The position numbers and the translations under genes were made by a program. A stretch of 59,657 nt of DNA, the filler included. It is 5 parts of 5 records of this genome, joined end to end, with 100 filler letters (N's around TTAATTAATTAA, not from the genome) between each part and the next. Parts side by side here need not be neighbours in the genome. Positions count along the whole stretch, not along the records: positions 18,970 to 32,932 come from SRR22947727_214; 4 more parts are not named here. One strand, 5' to 3'. Every line of letters begins with the position of its first letter. Positions within the stretch are counted from its first letter, which is position 1. Positions 27,894 through 33,541 of this stretch are shown in pieces. Under the pieces are notes generated by a model that saw only the letters and a program-made list of their open reading frames with translations, was not told the origin of the DNA and searched no databases.

Positions 27894-28322
27894 ATGAAAA
27901 AATTATCTATTTTAGTTTTTACTTTTCTATTTCTTACCGGATGTTATCAATCTATGGCACTACTTGGTCCAGCCACTGGAGCTGCAAATGGAAAAGTTGT
28001 TCAATCCTCACTTCAGTCAGCTGCTAGTTATGGCATAAAAAAACAAACGGGTAAGTCTCCCTTTGAACATATAGTAGCTTATTCAGAACAAAAAGATTTA
28101 GAAAATTGTGGAGAAGAGAATAAACAAACTAAAAAATGCCTAAACTTAAATGAAAAATTATTATCAGCTCAATCATTAGTTGAGCAAAAAGATCAAATTA
28201 TTTCAGAAATTAAAACGGAGTCTAAAGAAGTTATACAAGAAAAAGCAAAATCAGCTAGAGAGCTAGCTATTTCTGTTCAAGCAGCGATTATAGAAAAATC
28301 AAAAATTAAATATCTAGATTAA
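27894..28322 (+). CDS. Putative lipoprotein, unknown function
   Basis: MKK-hydrophobic-LTGC lipobox. Confidence 0.7.
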   Translation: MKKLSILVFTFLFLTGCYQSMALLGPATGAANGKVVQSSLQSAASYGIKKQTGKSPFEHIVAYSEQKDLENCGEENKQTKKCLNLNEKLLSAQSLVEQKDQIISEIKTESKEVIQEKAKSARELAISVQAAIIEKSKIKYLD

Positions 28323-28705
28323 CTCGAAGGCAAGTTTTCATTTTTCCAGCCTTGGTCTTCACCATTACCTTCAAAACCATCACTTATATTAATACAGTTA
28401 AATCCTTCTTGTGATAATAATTGAGCTGCCATCATAGATCTTGCACCCGATCTACAAATGATTAACAAATCTTTTTTTATGTCAGCTTTATTTTTTACTT
28501 CAGCAACAAATCCTTTATTAGCCTCTGGGTCTGGTGATCTTTGGATAGTTATAAAATGTGTCTTGATACCTAGCGCTTCACCATTAGGTTTTCCAATTTG
28601 ATCCCATTCCTCTTTGGTTCTGACATCTAAAAGTTCGATATTTTTATTATTATTTAAAAAAGATTTAATGTCCTTACTAGGTAAATTTCTTATTTGTTTA
28701 GACAT
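28319..28705 (-). CDS. Single-domain rhodanese/sulfurtransferase
   Basis: LLDVRTKEEW, active-site CRSGARS, GFEG...GW. Likely ATG at 28705, 1 nt after the metE stop. Confidence 0.88.
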   Translation of the reverse strand: MSKQIRNLPSKDIKSFLNNNKNIELLDVRTKEEWDQIGKPNGEALGIKTHFITIQRSPDPEANKGFVAEVKNKADIKKDLLIICRSGARSMMAAQLLSQEGFNCINISDGFEGNGEDQGWKNENLPSS

Positions 28706-28706
28706 T

Positions 28707-30965
28707 TTAAATTTTTCTAAGTTCTTTTGCTGCCAAAACCATTTTAGATAAAGCATCTATAGTTTCAGGCCATGCACGAGTTTTTAATCCACAATCAGGG
28801 TTAACCCATATTCTAGTTGGATCAATTAATTTTGATGCTTTCTGAATTAGCTGTTTCATTTCATCCGTTGAAGGTACTCGGGGTGAATGAATGTCATAAA
28901 CACCTGGTCCAATTTCATTTGGATATTTAAATTTTTCAAAAGTGGTTAAAAGTTCCATTCTTGATCGAGATGTTTCAATGGAAATTACATCCGCATCTAA
29001 CGCAGCAATAGAATCGATTATGTCCTCAAATTCTGCGTAACACATATGTGTATGAATTTGAGTTTCATTTTTAACTACAGCTGCAGAAATTTTAAAACAA
29101 TCTACTGACCAATTTAGATACTCTTTCCAATCTTTTCGTTTTAGTGGCAAACCTTCTCTTAAAGCAGGTTCATCAATTTGAATCATCCGGATACCATTTT
29201 TTTCTAAATCTTCCACCTCATCACGAATAGCAAAACCTATTTCTTGTGCTGTATATTTTCTTGGTTGATCATCTCTAACAAAAGACCATTGTAAAATGGT
29301 AATAGGGCCTGTTAACATTCCTTTAACAATTTGCTTTGTTTGTTCTTGGGCAAATTTTGACCATCTCACTGTCATAGGATTTGGCCTAGATACATTTCCA
29401 AAAATAATTGGTGGCTTAACGCAACGAGAACCATAACTTTGTACAAATCCACTAGATGTAAAAGTAAATCCATTTAATTGTTCACCAAAGTACTCAACCA
29501 TATCATTTCTTTCAAACTCACCATGTACGATTACGTCAATACCCATCTCTTCTTGTTTTCTAATCGCGTCTATTGTTTTATCTTCTAGGAATTTGTTATA
29601 ACTTTTCTCATCAAGCTCGCCTCGTTTAAATTTTGCACGTGCTTGCCTTACATCAGTAGTTTGAGGGAAAGAACCAATTGTTGTTGTTGGAAACTTTGGT
29701 AAACCAAAAATACCCTTTTGTATTTTTGCTCTTTCTACATAACTAGATTTCCTCTCAGTTATTGATTTATTAATAGTTTTTATTCTATCTTTGACTTTAT
29801 CATCATGAATCAGTTTAGAAGTTTTTCTATCCTGAACATCTGCTGTATTTTTATTAAGTTCTTCTTGATGAGAGTTATTATCTATTACATTTTTAATAAC
29901 ATTTAACTCTTGTAGCTTTTGTTTTGAAAAAGATAGCCATCTTTTTATTTCAGCAGGAACTTTTTGCTCTAAATCTAAATCGTAAGGGGTATGCAAGAGA
30001 GGGCAAGATGATGCAATGATAACATCATTAGAAATATTACTCTTAATGAATCCAATTTTTTCTTGTAAATTTGACTTCCAAACATTTCTTCCATCAACCA
30101 CGCCCAAAGATAATTGTTTATTTGAGTTTTTAACGTAGTTTTTATTTTTTGTTCCTCGGACTAGATCTAAATGAATAGCATCTACATTACTTGCAAATAC
30201 TTCTTTTTTAATATCTTCATTTAAGTCTTCAAAGTAAGTTGCAACTAAGATCTTACTTTTGCCAGCTGCAACCTTAAGTTCATTTAAGGTATTTTTGATT
30301 TGAGATACGACATCTGTATCTAAATCTTTAACCAAGATAGGCTCATCTATTTGTATCCATTCCGCGCCAAGCTCAGAAAATTTTTTAATAACATCCTTGT
30401 AAACAGGTAATATTTTACTTAACAAATTAATCGTTTTATTTCCGTCTATACCTTTAGCTAATAATAAAAATGATAACGGACCTAAAATAATTGGCTTTGT
30501 ATTATATCCAGCAGCTTTTGCTTCTTCATATTCTGCAAAGGGCTTATTAGAACTTAACTTAAAATTTTGGTCTTTTGATAATTCTGGAACTAGATAATGG
30601 TAATTTGTATCAAACCATTTAGTCATTTCTAAAGCCGGCACATCTAATTCAGCTGTTTGTGAACCACGAGCCATAGCAAAATAGGTCTTAAGATTTACTT
30701 CATTACCATCCCATTTGTATCTTTTAGGTACTGCACCTAATAAGCAAATAGCATCGAGCACATGATCGTAAAAAGAAAAATCATTTGAAGAAATTAAATC
30801 AACACCATTATCCTTTTGCGTCTGCCAATTTTTTTTTCTTAAATCTTTAGCAACATTCTGTAATTCATTTTCTTGGATTTCACCTTTCCAAAATTGTTCT
30901 AAAGCTTTTTTTAATTCTCTTTTAGGTCCTATTCGTGGGTAACCAATGGTTGCTACTTTAATCAT
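28707..30965 (-). CDS. metE: Cobalamin-independent methionine synthase
   Basis: Full-length two-barrel protein: GYPRIGPKRELK, MTKWFDTNYHY, TTTIGSFPQT, zinc ligands HTHMC, ISIE and NPDCGLKTR. Confidence 0.97.
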   Translation of the reverse strand: MIKVATIGYPRIGPKRELKKALEQFWKGEIQENELQNVAKDLRKKNWQTQKDNGVDLISSNDFSFYDHVLDAICLLGAVPKRYKWDGNEVNLKTYFAMARGSQTAELDVPALEMTKWFDTNYHYLVPELSKDQNFKLSSNKPFAEYEEAKAAGYNTKPIILGPLSFLLLAKGIDGNKTINLLSKILPVYKDVIKKFSELGAEWIQIDEPILVKDLDTDVVSQIKNTLNELKVAAGKSKILVATYFEDLNEDIKKEVFASNVDAIHLDLVRGTKNKNYVKNSNKQLSLGVVDGRNVWKSNLQEKIGFIKSNISNDVIIASSCPLLHTPYDLDLEQKVPAEIKRWLSFSKQKLQELNVIKNVIDNNSHQEELNKNTADVQDRKTSKLIHDDKVKDRIKTINKSITERKSSYVERAKIQKGIFGLPKFPTTTIGSFPQTTDVRQARAKFKRGELDEKSYNKFLEDKTIDAIRKQEEMGIDVIVHGEFERNDMVEYFGEQLNGFTFTSSGFVQSYGSRCVKPPIIFGNVSRPNPMTVRWSKFAQEQTKQIVKGMLTGPITILQWSFVRDDQPRKYTAQEIGFAIRDEVEDLEKNGIRMIQIDEPALREGLPLKRKDWKEYLNWSVDCFKISAAVVKNETQIHTHMCYAEFEDIIDSIAALDADVISIETSRSRMELLTTFEKFKYPNEIGPGVYDIHSPRVPSTDEMKQLIQKASKLIDPTRIWVNPDCGLKTRAWPETIDALSKMVLAAKELRKI

Positions 30966-30983: not shown

Positions 30984-31385
30984 TTAATCTTTATGATGTT
31001 GCCAAAGCTTATCTGTTCCACCAAAGTGGCCCCAGTCACTATCAGCTTTCATTGTACTACTAATTCCACCTCTTGGACGAAATTGTATCTCTAGCCTTAA
31101 CCTGAAAGGTTTGTAAGCTTCGATCAAGTGTTTATACATTACATCGATCGCACGCTCATAACTTATGATCGTATCTCGATATTGTAATAAGTATTCTTTT
31201 AAACTTTTTAATTCGACAGTTGATTTTTCACCATGAAACCAAATTTTAATGTGCCCAAAATCAGGTTGGTTATGTACTCCCATAAAAGTAAATTCAGGAA
31301 TATCAATATATTGTTCATATCCACTAGCAGGATTAGGTATGGACTTTAAAAGTTTACCGTCAATTTTGTCCCAAAGTTTTTTCAT
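30984..31385 (-). CDS. QueF-like T-fold protein lacking the catalytic cysteine
   Basis: PEFT..., QPDFG, QueF motif ELKSLKEY and PRGGIS are present, but PEFTFMGVH replaces PEFTxLCP; the protein has no Cys at all. Confidence 0.85.
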   Translation of the reverse strand: MKKLWDKIDGKLLKSIPNPASGYEQYIDIPEFTFMGVHNQPDFGHIKIWFHGEKSTVELKSLKEYLLQYRDTIISYERAIDVMYKHLIEAYKPFRLRLEIQFRPRGGISSTMKADSDWGHFGGTDKLWQHHKD

Positions 31386-31397
31386 ATGAATTTTTTA

Positions 31398-31428
31398 TTA
31401 CCCCACTAAAAAATTTTTAGTGGGGTAA
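31398..31428. repeat. Perfect 15-bp inverted repeat between metY and the QueF-like gene
   Basis: TTACCCCACTAAAAA-A-TTTTTAGTGGGGTAA; followed by A-rich, not U-rich, sequence on the coding (minus) strand. Confidence 0.85.
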
Positions 31429-31434
31429 ATCTCT

Positions 31435-32724
31435 TTATGCTAATGCCTGTTTAATGTCAGCAATAATATCATCGGGATGTTCAATACCAATTGATAGTCT
31501 AACATATCCAAGAGTTACCCCAGCAGCTAACTGCTCTTCAGGCGAAAGTTGACTGTGAGTAGTCGAGGCTGGATGAATAGCTAAACTTCTTGCGTCACCA
31601 ATGTTTGCAACATGGTAAAGCATTTTAAGTTTATCTATAAATTTAGCACCGGCTTCAACTGTACCTAAGTCAATACCAACAAGAGCGCCATCACCACCCT
31701 TTAGATATTTTTTTGCACGAGCTAAAATTTCTCCATCATAGTTTGTTGAATAAATAACTTTCTTCACACTTTTGTGAGATTTTAAAAACTCAACAACTTT
31801 TGCTGCATTATTGTTATGTTGTTTCATTCTAAGCGCTAATGTTTCAAGCCCTTGGATGATCTGGAAAGCATTAAATGGACTTAATGGAGCCCCCAAGTCT
31901 CTAAGCACTACAACTCTTGCTCTGATGACAAAAGGAATGTTTGCTCCAGTTAATACCGGAACAGCATCTGCCCATACAGCACCACCATAACTTTGATCAG
32001 GTTCATTAAGTAATGGTTGTCTTTTTCTATCTTTAATCCAATCAAAGTTTCCACCATCAACTATAATTCCACCAATGGAAGTACCGTGACCACCAATGTA
32101 TTTAGTCAGTGAATGCATTACTATTGCAGCACCATGTTCTAAAGGCTTACAAATAATTGGTGCAGCAGTATTATCCATAATTAATGGAATTCCTTTTTTT
32201 CTACCAATATCTGAAACTTCTTTAATTGGAAAAACTCTCAAATATGGATTTGGAAGCGTCTCTCCATAGTAAGCTCGAGTTTTATCATCAGTTAACTTTT
32301 CAAAGTTTTTTGGATCAGCAGGATCTGCAAATCTAACTTCAATACCTTGTTGTCTTAGAGTATTTTTAAATAAATTTACTGTTCCACCGTACAAGTCAGT
32401 TGAAGCAACAATGTTATCACCAGCTTGTGCTAAGTTTTGGATACAATACGCAGAAGCAGCTTGTCCTGAACCTACTGCTAAAGCAGCAACACCACCTTCT
32501 AAAGCAGCTACTCTTTTTTCAAGAACGTCTACTGTTGGATTCATAATCCGCGTATAAATATTACCAAATTCTTTTAAACCAAATAAATTTGCAGCATGTT
32601 CTGCATTTTTAAATTGGTAAGAGGTAGTCTGGTAAATAGGTACCGCTACTGATGTTGTTGCTGGGTCTGCTCTGTAATCAGATCCATGCAATCCTATTGT
32701 TTCCGGATGTTTTAAATCAGCCAT
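31435..32724 (-). CDS. metY: O-acetylhomoserine aminocarboxypropyltransferase (sulfhydrylase)
   Basis: PIYQTTSY, YTRIMNPT, PLP lysine HSLTKYIGGHG, ANIGDARSL, RLSIGIE. Confidence 0.95.
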   Translation of the reverse strand: MADLKHPETIGLHGSDYRADPATTSVAVPIYQTTSYQFKNAEHAANLFGLKEFGNIYTRIMNPTVDVLEKRVAALEGGVAALAVGSGQAASAYCIQNLAQAGDNIVASTDLYGGTVNLFKNTLRQQGIEVRFADPADPKNFEKLTDDKTRAYYGETLPNPYLRVFPIKEVSDIGRKKGIPLIMDNTAAPIICKPLEHGAAIVMHSLTKYIGGHGTSIGGIIVDGGNFDWIKDRKRQPLLNEPDQSYGGAVWADAVPVLTGANIPFVIRARVVVLRDLGAPLSPFNAFQIIQGLETLALRMKQHNNNAAKVVEFLKSHKSVKKVIYSTNYDGEILARAKKYLKGGDGALVGIDLGTVEAGAKFIDKLKMLYHVANIGDARSLAIHPASTTHSQLSPEEQLAAGVTLGYVRLSIGIEHPDDIIADIKQALA

Positions 32725-32828
32725 TTTTTTTCTCCCTTATTGTTTCTCTGTTTGTGCTCATCATTTCTCTCCTTTTTGTTAGGAGAAAACGAGTAGCCGT
32801 TAAACGAGGGGTTTAATCTAGTATTCAT
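32712..32828 (-). CDS. Putative 38-aa leader peptide (uORF1) initiated from the riboswitch RBS
   Basis: AAGGAGAAA-ATG at 32828; MNTRLNPSFNGYSFSPNKKERNDEHKQRNNKGEKKWLI*; stop overlaps the metY start region. Confidence 0.4.
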   Translation of the reverse strand: MNTRLNPSFNGYSFSPNKKERNDEHKQRNNKGEKKWLI

Positions 32829-32829
32829 T

Positions 32830-32894
32830 TTCTCCTTTTTAGTACTTCGGCAAAATGCCAGGTGTACAATATGGTTCAAATACCCGGTTTAATT
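32830..32894 (-). promoter_or_regulatory. SAM-V riboswitch
   Basis: Minus strand AATTAAACCGGGTATTTGAACCATATTGTACACCTGGCATTTTGCCGAAGTACTAAAAAGGAG. P1 CCGGGT/ACCTGG, UUUGAAC loop, pseudoknot TTGTAC/GTAC(T)AA, small GGCA/TGCC hairpin, ends in the RBS; upstream of metY, as known for SAR11 SAM-V RNAs. Confidence 0.9.
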
Positions 32895-32932: not shown

Positions 32933-33032
32933 NNNNNNNNNNNNNNNNNNNNNNNNNNNNNNNNNNNNNNNNNNNNTTAATTAATTAANNNNNNNNNNNN
33001 NNNNNNNNNNNNNNNNNNNNNNNNNNNNNNNN
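32933..33032. other. Artificial contig linker
   Basis: 44 N + TTAATTAATTAA + 44 N. Confidence 0.99.
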
Positions 33033-33034
33033 TT

Positions 33035-33541
33035 AGAGTTCCAGCAAGTAATATTTTACTTGGTGAAGGAAGGGGTTTTGAGATTGCTCAAGGAAGATTA
33101 GGTCCAGGAAGAATTCATCATTGTATGAGGTTGGTAGGAGTTGCACAAAGAGCACTAGAATTGATGTGTAAAAGAGCAAATCAAAGGGAAGCATTTGGAA
33201 GAAATTTAATAAAATTTAGCAGTGTTAGACAGGATATTGCAAAATCAGAATGTGAAATTCAACAGGCAAGGTTGCTAACTCTAGCGGCAGCGGATAAAAT
33301 TGATAAGTTTGGAGCTAAAGAAGCTAAAAACTTAATCGCCATGATAAAAATACAAGTTCCCCAAATGACCTGCGATGTAGTTGACAGAGCAATACAAATT
33401 CACGGAGGAATGGGAGTTAGTCAGGACACACCTTTAGCAAGATATTATGCTATGGCTAGGGTTCTCAGATTAGCGGATGGACCAGATGAGGTTCATATGT
33501 TTCAACTAGGAAGAAATTTAGCAAAACAATATGAGGTATAA
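33035..33541 (+). CDS. Acyl-CoA dehydrogenase (ACAD10/11, FadE2/LvaC type), 5'-truncated
   Basis: Frame open from the contig start: RVPASNILLGEGRGFEIAQGRLGPGRIHHCMR...AIQIHGGMG...RLADGPDEVH. Confidence 0.92.
   Translation, partial: RVPASNILLGEGRGFEIAQGRLGPGRIHHCMRLVGVAQRALELMCKRANQREAFGRNLIKFSSVRQDIAKSECEIQQARLLTLAAADKIDKFGAKEAKNLIAMIKIQVPQMTCDVVDRAIQIHGGMGVSQDTPLARYYAMARVLRLADGPDEVHMFQLGRNLAKQYEV

Follow-up and report, generated by a model that had tools for sequence, protein, structure and literature searches.

What does a member of the QueF family do in a methionine operon when it lacks the cysteine on which QueF chemistry depends? The question is raised by a Pelagibacteraceae locus on the stretch of DNA analysed here (59,657 nucleotides, hereafter the window), in which a minus-strand open reading frame (ORF; 30984..31385, ATG start) encodes a protein of 133 aa whose translation contains no cysteine. 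A preliminary description, made from the sequence alone, had taken it for a probable new T-fold enzyme tied to methionine or folate metabolism. The reading favoured here, to which about an even chance is given, is that the protein acts as a flavin-free, NAD(P)H-dependent reductase of 5,10-methylene-tetrahydrofolate (methylene-THF), a non-homologous analog of MetF that feeds the methionine synthases MetE and MetH; we infer its substrate, direction and mechanism. The theme common to the loci described below is that the gene travels with users of N5-linked one-carbon folates (MetE, MetH, ThyX) or with genes of the S-adenosylmethionine (SAM) cycle (MetK, AhcY).

A cysteine-less branch of the QueF family

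The protein matches the Pfam QueF model (PF14489) with 66.2 bits against a cut-off of 27.3, and it stays under the cut-offs of two NCBIfam models, the QueF-II equivalog TIGR03139 (76.9 bits, cut-off 86.9) and TIGR03138 (32.7 bits, cut-off 293.45). Its best match in both sequence and fold is the unimodular, YkvM-type QueF of B. subtilis (PDB 4F8B/4FGC), an NADPH-dependent nitrile reductase of 7-cyano-7-deazaguanine (preQ0) that is likewise a T-fold protein of similar size and shares 32% identity with it (phmmer against 4f8b, E 1.3e-9). An AlphaFold2 model based on a 63-sequence alignment reached a mean pLDDT of 90.8 and a pTM of 0.85, and Foldseek ordered its structural relatives as B. subtilis QueF (4fgc, 4f8b; TM 0.75), V. 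cholerae QueF, GTP cyclohydrolase I and QueF-L. GTP cyclohydrolase I (FolE) belongs to the same T-fold superfamily (TM 0.63-0.67), but its identity to the protein is 12-16%, and the Pfam match is to the QueF model and not to FolE. The family of methylenetetrahydrofolate reductase (MTHFR, PF02219), to which MetF belongs, gave no match to the protein at E values up to 0.1, so it can be at most a functional analog of MetF and not a family member. The Pfam scan likewise showed no homology to DHFR/FolA (PF00186).

The features by which QueF had been recognised by eye in the 133-aa protein, namely the Asp of PDF, ELKSLKEY, SYE and PRGGI, were all confirmed with Pfam and phmmer. The NADPH-binding QueF motif, defined as E(S/L)K(S/A)hK(L/Y)(Y/F/W) (PMC13740343), is retained as ELKSLKEY at residues 58-65; the Asp of QPDF is retained as Asp42, aligned to the general acid/base Asp62 of QueF; the ring-binding Glu97 corresponds to Glu77; and PRGGI occupies residues 104-108 (Arg105-Gly-Gly107). 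These elements are common to the protein and unimodular QueF. The nucleophile is not: in the phmmer alignment the column of the thioimide-forming Cys55 (numbered as in PMC13740343) holds Gly36, directly followed by a one-residue deletion, which bears out the earlier claim that this Cys was replaced in a protein without any cysteine. Unlike unimodular QueF, the Cys-less proteins further have an invariant Ser-Tyr (Ser75-Tyr76) in place of Phe95-His96, an Arg after the Glu, a DSDW..GG extension in many members, and, as a rule, neighbours from methionine metabolism, the SAM cycle or thyX instead of que genes.

In many homologs alignment position 79 is a Cys (S-Y-E-R-C), and in the window copy it is Ala. 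We take this column to be that of B. subtilis QueF Cys99, which pairs with Cys55 in a protective disulfide. The Cys at position 79 of the homologs may thus be a relic of QueF ancestry. A protective disulfide of QueF is described in PMC5372742, from which the residue numbers used here do not come, and is named in the title of PDB entry 5udg.

A word-indexed search returned 277 homologs; the 120 matches listed share 71-98% identity with the window protein and are annotated in one source as '7-cyano-7-deazaguanine reductase'. Gly36 is one of 58 positions that do not vary among the 24 close homologs compared. Among 63 diverse members, E31, G36, D42, L59, K63, S75, Y76, E77, P93, R105, G106 and G107 are invariant, and E58, K60, S61 and Y65 are each at least 90% conserved. 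When 1.84 billion cluster representatives were searched with a profile, 2098 matched at E values up to 1e-3, and the best 150 of these were aligned. Within these best 150 of 2098, the Cys column holds Gly in 72 rows, Cys in 62 and Pro in one, the remaining 15 being fragments. Ser-Tyr-Glu occurs in none of the 62 Cys rows and in 57 of the 72 Gly rows (11 gapped, 4 different), and the rows also divide by rank, with Gly in 45 of the top 50 and Cys in 40 of the bottom 50. By both features the Cys-less proteins are therefore a distinct and widespread subfamily of the QueF T-fold family, with the hallmarks x-E-x-T-F-x-G...Q-P-D and S-Y-E-R and, in many members, a C-terminal DSDW..GG tail. Since the Gly is invariant in the 24 close and the 63 diverse members, and the Cys-less motif is present in 77 of 78 called phage copies (motif match), the loss of the Cys is beyond chance.

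Fusions within longer proteins were found as singletons only (peptidase M19, a methyltransferase, a SAM hydroxide adenosyltransferase domain in two cases, MFS and proline dehydrogenase), and no fusion to a folate enzyme recurred among them. The Protein Atlas contains the proteins in 'QueF family' clusters only, many of them viral. A 2026 review of QueF recognises only the YkvM and YqcD subfamilies (PMC13740343), and neither a Cys-less QueF subfamily nor a QueF-derived MTHFR was met in the openly accessible full texts searched, among them that review, the QueF-L paper, a review of paralogs, preprints on phage 7-deazaguanines and on methionine synthases, and the GapMind 2026 preprint. The supplementary phage QueF alignments of 10.1101/2023.04.13.536721 could hold relevant sequences.

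A QueF-family T-fold paralog with changed chemistry has a parallel in QueF-L, the archaeosine synthase of Crenarchaeota (PDB 5JYX, rank 44 in Foldseek). QueF-L retains the Cys and forms the thioimide (PMC5485725), and it works without NADPH-dependent reduction (10.1101/2023.04.13.536721). The situation here is the reverse, with the NADPH motif retained and the Cys lost.

Could the protein nevertheless be a preQ0 reductase that works without the Cys, or a QueF pseudogene in decay? This we regard as hardly credible. The label '7-cyano-7-deazaguanine reductase' speaks for it, as does the fact that the gene is the only PF14489 match in two of the genomes that carry it (hereafter carriers), G003 and G004, the latter with QueC and TGT. 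Against it stand the inactivity of the C55A and C55S variants of QueF (PMC13740343) and the score below the NCBIfam equivalog cut-off. Among five carriers tested, TGT was found in all, and genuine QueC in G004 and not in G001, G003, G109 or G230; G002 and G005 have a canonical bimodular QueF besides the QueF-like gene. That the gene might have displaced canonical QueF in the order of G004 was considered and dropped, because the latter is missing from all five carriers and equally from all five non-carriers examined there, which leaves no pattern. Decay is ruled out by purifying selection and by hundreds of intact homologs: dN/dS was 0.035-0.092 (0.04-0.09 when rounded) in 8 of 10 pairs among five Pelagibacterales copies, with 0.34 in one near-identical pair and one pair saturated. 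The possibility raised at the outset, that close homologs keep the Cys and the window copy is decaying, is thus contradicted by the Gly in all 24 close homologs and by these ratios, and the earlier statement that the protein cannot be a canonical preQ0 reductase stands on the family-wide loss of the Cys, the inactive variants and the QueC results.

The methionine operon and bacterial gene neighbourhoods

The window operon comprises the following features, given from its head to its end.

32829..32894, minus strand: SAM-V riboswitch aptamer at the operon head (Rfam RF01826, 75.4 bits against a gathering score of 41, full-length)
31435..32724, minus strand: metY, O-acetylhomoserine sulfhydrylase, a pyridoxal phosphate enzyme and the first gene (Pfam Cys_Met_Meta_PP, 391 bits; NCBIfam TIGR01326, 571.6 bits, above cut-off)
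31398..31428, no strand assigned: 14-bp perfect hairpin in the 49-nt spacer between metY and the QueF-like gene (terminator-like scan, in which it appears on the + (non-coding) strand only)
30984..31385, minus strand: Cys-less QueF-family T-fold protein, 133 aa (Pfam, NCBIfam, phmmer, AlphaFold2, Foldseek)
28707..30965, minus strand: metE, cobalamin-independent methionine synthase (NCBIfam NF003556, 1118 bits, and TIGR01371, 1082 bits, both above cut-off; Pfam Meth_synt_1 and Meth_synt_2)
28319..28756, minus strand: rhodanese-domain protein, the last gene (Pfam Rhodanese, 34.3 bits)
28252..28269, minus strand: terminator-like hairpin with T-run 3' of the rhodanese gene (consensus scan only)

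The QueF-like gene begins 49 nt after metY, and metE follows 18 nt after its stop codon. MetE uses the polyglutamate of 5-methyl-THF. As the preliminary description had stated, no que genes lie nearby: none was found among the ORFs at 26-37 kb, four of which were scanned with Pfam or NCBIfam and the rest judged by eye. The window matches L001, a locus of a Pelagibacteraceae metagenome-assembled genome (MAG), at 100% identity, and the order of SAM-V aptamer, metY, QueF-like gene, metE and rhodanese gene recurs in L002 and L003. The QueF-like gene was present in only 1 of 151 sampled Pelagibacterales genomes, and its position in a methionine operon between metY and metE is confined to a small SAR11 subclade.

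The wider context was obtained from a scan of one genome per species, which gave 266 relatives; 80 loci were kept, and their neighbours were clustered and annotated. Next to the QueF-like gene, 33 of these 80 loci have metH or metE. Flanking by metY and metE accounts for five, all Pelagibacterales-like. The homocysteine-S-methyltransferase half of metH is the upstream neighbour in 23 loci and the C-terminal part (pterin-binding, B12 and activation domains) adjoins the gene in 28, so that in Cyclobacteriaceae-like and other Bacteroidota the gene lies between the halves of a split metH, frequently with a 10-nt overlap with the gene before it. A divergent arrangement with a full-length metH is seen in Pleionea, Kangiellaceae and other Gammaproteobacteria. 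A second large group (16 of 80 loci, Syntrophorhabdus-like) has thyX directly upstream at a gap of 15-46 nt. Single cases follow a stand-alone Pterin_bind gene (a Marinimicrobia MAG) or lie within cysH-cysD...cysN (one Bacteroidota genome). No que genes appeared in the recurrent neighbour clusters of the 80 loci or among 40 neighbours scanned at 12 loci.

A SAM-I riboswitch heads all six split-metH operons tested (L016, L026, L022, L039, L049 and L072), and in ten tested loci without an adjoining metE or split metH no riboswitch reached the gathering score. Together with the SAM-V aptamer of the window type, two unrelated classes of SAM riboswitch thus control the gene in two phyla. The claim of a new T-fold subfamily tied to methionine and folate is upheld by these riboswitches and by the adjacency to metE and metH.

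Several smaller observations concern the window operon itself. The 14-bp hairpin after metY is a candidate for an intercistronic structure or, alternatively, an insertion scar, and the hairpin at 28252..28269 likely marks the operon end. Two short upstream ORFs with AGGAG-like sites were seen by eye on the minus strand at 32715-32828, between the aptamer and metY; the first has about 38 codons and starts at 32828, and the second has 15 codons with a TGA that overlaps the metY ATG. They hint at a translational coupling of riboswitch control to metY. The rhodanese ORF overlaps the end of metE and contains an internal ATG at 28705, 1 nt past the metE stop; in the SAM-V operons of the window, L002 and L003, translational coupling links the rhodanese gene to the 3' end of metE. 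The lineage is not known to carry out assimilatory sulfate reduction, and the rhodanese could deliver sulfane sulfur to MetY.

The window consists of joined MAG contigs. An N run at 32933-33032 contains an all-frame stop linker (ttaattaattaa, 32977-32988), the met operon begins right at the contig end, and beyond the junction an ORF at 33125-33541 resembles, by eye, a C-terminal fragment of an acyl-CoA dehydrogenase-like gene cut by it. Loci L002, L004 and L005 come from SXSU01, a MAG labelled Bdellovibrionales, and contain, on three contigs, SAR11-like metY/QueF-like/metE operons that are 83-89% identical to the window, which suggests that this bin is mixed or contains several Pelagibacterales strains.

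Distribution relative to MetF, MetH and FolA

In two orders the gene and MetF show a complementary distribution. In the order of G003 the gene is present in 7 of 201 genomes, at 157-171 bits (against about 45 bits for canonical QueF with this profile). MTHFR is above cut-off in 166 of the 201 genomes, comprising none of the 7 carriers and 166 of the 194 non-carriers (Fisher P 2.8e-6), and MetH is present in 6 of the 7 carriers. In 39 genomes of this order MTHFR is unmatched or matched weakly at best (below about 1e-7); among these, 6 of the 7 carriers and 10 non-carriers possess MetH or MetE, and the other 22 non-carriers, mostly of 1.7 Mb or less, have neither. The order of G002 gives a similar result: the gene is present in 11 of 201 genomes, and canonical MTHFR (at least 257 bits) occurs in none of these 11 but in 134 of the 190 non-carriers (P 3.1e-6). 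Low-scoring MTHFR-like genes (106-113 bits) occur in two carriers only of the order-of-G002 sample.

Across the 53 carriers whose status was known, MTHFR was found in 2 of the 21 in which the gene adjoins a methionine synthase and in 23 of the 32 others (P 1.2e-5), the latter divided into 12 of 13 carriers with the gene after thyX and 11 of 19 with other contexts. Carriers with the gene beside a methionine synthase are thus almost always without MetF. Pleionea sediminis is a carrier with MetH and no MetF. The MetF-like role that had been proposed as one of several options gains independent support from the adjacency to metE and metH, from the SAM riboswitches and from the complementarity with MetF in two orders; the supply of 5-methyl-THF would be the function common to the two proteins. 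In structure they have nothing in common, MetF being an FAD-dependent TIM barrel of about 300 aa and the window protein a chain of 133 aa with unrelated sequence and fold, in which no flavin site is expected.

Low-scoring MTHFR-family genes of this kind (G005, G207, G208, G444 and G511; 106-121 bits, 330-350 aa) were noticed in Halieaceae carriers. These genes may represent a distinct, perhaps catabolic, MetF subfamily. In SAR11, the six canonical MTHFR proteins score 282-301 bits (G254-G313, 61 Pelagibacterales genomes), and 41 of the 61 genomes have only a match of 19-30 bits over MTHFR profile positions 44-273 in a frame of 240-310 aa. Such weak MetF-like frames resemble the truncated ACIAD1783/PP_4638 proteins, which are of unknown function according to 10.1101/2020.04.21.054031.

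Several results weigh against a MetF substitute. In the order of G004, where the gene follows thyX and is present in 32 of 96 genomes, an MTHFR-family protein occurs in 13 of 14 carriers and in 10 of 10 sampled non-carriers, so that MetF complementarity does not hold for this thyX-linked clade. A canonical-scoring MTHFR is also present in carriers such as Marinoscillum (L049), with the gene in a metH operon, Pleionea CnH1-48 (L031), three MAGs of Bacteroidales and one of Flavobacteriales (L014), marine bacterium AO1-C (L056) and two Carboxylicivirga genomes. Ten genomes in the order of G003 (G010, G040, G055, G056, G119, G139, G162, G163, G178 and G202) possess MetH or MetE and lack both canonical MTHFR and the QueF-like gene, although in six a weak PF02219 match remains; lack of MetF therefore need not require the QueF-like gene, and these ten reflect either assembly gaps or another route to methyl-THF. 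Canonical MetF is in any case present in only 6 of 61 sampled SAR11 genomes, which, with the gene in 1 of 151, makes complementarity within the Pelagibacterales uninformative. The Fisher tests ignore phylogenetic non-independence, and because many carriers are MAGs (that of the window has about 1.0 Mb), absences are soft. The anti-correlation with metF that had been suggested as a check thus appeared in the orders of G003 and G002 and failed in the order of G004.

A second option of the preliminary description, a dihydrofolate or dihydropterin reductase replacing FolA, is very unlikely. The direct linkage to thyX is in its favour, DHFR_1 is absent from all 13 thyX-linked carriers tested and from two SAR11 MAGs, and the reduction of dihydrofolate is an imine reduction at N5=C6, beside the position of the proposed one-carbon unit. 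However, none of the 96 genomes in the order of G004 has FolA, and 64 of these do not contain the QueF-like gene; the absence of FolA is therefore a trait of the lineage that says nothing on this gene. FolA is present in 42 of 59 carriers, including every metH-linked one, and ThyX does not produce dihydrofolate. The expected anti-correlation with folA was accordingly not seen, and the DHFR-like option is not supported.

The third option, a pterin-binding regulator, can be widened to any non-catalytic folate or pterin binder, i.e. a carrier, chaperone or regulator that passes on methyl-THF or senses folate. Tight linkage to metE and metH would suit such a protein, and so would the loss of the canonical nucleophile. 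We nevertheless consider it quite improbable: the retention of E58, K60, K63, Y65 and Asp42, (near-)invariant in 63 members, would be unexpected in a mere binder, and a binder cannot supply the MetF step in MetF-less, MetH-positive genomes. Of the regulator proposal, then, the link to the methionine synthases held good, and the invariant NADPH motif and acid/base residues fit it poorly.

Phage copies and the proposed reaction

Relatives of the gene are also found in phages. IMG/VR yielded 215 relatives on viral contigs, of which 80, 65-79% identical to the window protein, were kept. The contigs look T4-like, with a T4-type terminase, UvsY-like and RecA-like proteins, ribonucleotide reductase and a 5'-3' exonuclease, and the genes at the loci are co-directional within recurrent neighbour clusters. 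The S-adenosylhomocysteine hydrolase gene ahcY adjoins the gene in 35 of the 80 viral loci (at +1 in 34), and the SAM synthetase gene metK is nearby in 26 (at -1 in 13). Among PHROG families, a single one was matched, and it bears the label 'GTP cyclohydrolase'. Two phage loci, L175:12034-16857 and L210, were observed in which the QueF-like gene and ahcY are followed by sugar epimerase/dehydratase genes and C-/O-methyltransferases (TylF-like); a SAM sink of this kind is a plausible explanation for the methyl-cycle genes of the phages.

A FastTree phylogeny divides the family into two clades. One has 61 sequences, 51 of them viral, and the copies from Pelagibacterales and Halieaceae are nested in it with a support of 0.996. 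A second clade of 69 bacterial sequences contains Bacteroidota and Gammaproteobacteria, with the thyX-linked group nested within. Because the window copy lies inside a clade made up mostly of phage sequences, it has probably been exchanged with phages, in either direction.

The phage loci also provide the main material for another reading, in which the protein is an NADPH-dependent reductase acting on some other pterin or 7-deazapurine intermediate, with an indirect link to the methionine cycle. Its substrate could be a carbonyl or imine on a product of FolE, QueD/PTPS and QueE, or an oxidised folate such as 5-methyl-dihydrofolate (metabolite repair). A PTPS/queD-like gene is present in 12 of the 80 viral loci (QueD-like at +1 in 10) and a queE-like gene in 11, and some loci join the gene with folE, a phosphoribosyltransferase, a queE-like and a PTPS/queD-like gene, a module that hints at a deazaguanine or pterin substrate and so counts against a methylene-THF reductase. 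In L174:5003-14764 and L205:2332-11406, folE, phosphoribosyltransferase, queE-like, metK, QueF-like, PTPS/queD-like and DUF3307 genes all occur within 20 kb; folE to the QueF-like gene run in the order named, and PTPS comes at some distance after them. No QueC or TGT/DpdA Pfam match was found in the 78 of 113 called ORFs scanned in four phage loci (the shortest ORFs being excluded), and the module of L174 and L205 may represent a nucleotide-level deazapurine or pterin pathway. PTPS-family genes were also found in all three Cyclobacteriaceae-type carriers tested, the T-fold Glu recognises a ring common to both classes of compound, and the co-occurrence with MetF and the linkage to thyX would be easier to explain. 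This reading leaves unexplained the absence of canonical MetF from carriers that keep MetH, and the location inside split metH operons headed by SAM-I riboswitches. In the stretches seen, most phage loci contain ahcY or metK but neither queD nor queE, and QueC was not found in four of the five carrier genomes. It is thus unlikely, without being far-fetched.

For the favoured reaction, reduction of methylene-THF, a mechanism can be proposed by analogy with QueF. Glu77 and backbone contacts would anchor the 2-amino-4-oxo-pyrimidine ring that is common to pterins and 7-deazaguanine. C7 of 7-deazaguanine and N5 of the pterin are both bonded to the ring-fusion carbon beside C4=O, and the N5-linked one-carbon unit of methylene-THF would accordingly take the place of the nitrile or imine carbon on C7 of preQ0. 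Asp42 would protonate N10, upon which the imidazolidine ring would open to the N5-iminium, and NADPH bound on the retained E-x-K-x-x-K-x-Y helix would transfer a hydride to the exocyclic carbon. Such a step would be the counterpart of the second, imine-reducing half-reaction of QueF, which acts on the exocyclic imine on C7. As no thioimide would be needed, the Cys is proposed to have become dispensable, and the changes from Cys to Gly and from Phe to Ser would enlarge the pocket. The chemistry of the proposed reaction is plausible by analogy: flavin-free MTHFR with direct hydride transfer is known in mycobacteria (PMC11094777, PMC10586308), and the mycobacterial Mfr/MsmMTHFR provides the precedent for flavin-free hydride transfer from NAD(P)H to methylene-THF (10.1101/2020.04.21.054031), although Mfr is a TIM barrel distantly related to MetF and not a T-fold protein. 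An extension of the idea, in which two successive hydrides would be transferred to one carbon, from methenyl- over methylene- to methyl-THF, much as QueF does, would also explain the linkage to thyX; we rate it as a long shot.

The broader claim is that of a third, independently evolved methylene-THF reductase, a QueF-derived T-fold enzyme that would replace MetF in several phyla, serve phages as an auxiliary gene and have been captured by SAR11 from phages. To this claim we assign a probability a little short of even. MetF and its flavin-free mycobacterial relative are regarded as the only routes to 5-methyl-THF (10.1101/2020.04.21.054031). Genomes with MetH or MetE and without MetF are for this reason counted as incomplete in methionine synthesis. 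What is new is a protein of the QueF family for which a different substrate and role are predicted. If the proposed reaction is true, hundreds of '7-cyano-7-deazaguanine reductase' annotations would be corrected, and a pathway hole would be closed in Cyclobacteriaceae-like Bacteroidota, in Kangiellaceae/Pleionea and in some marine lineages. In evolutionary terms, a nitrile reductase would have been re-tooled to an iminium reductase through loss of its nucleophile. For the phages, the gene would be an auxiliary function that supplies one-carbon units to the SAM cycle and keeps the SAM/methyl cycle of the host running.

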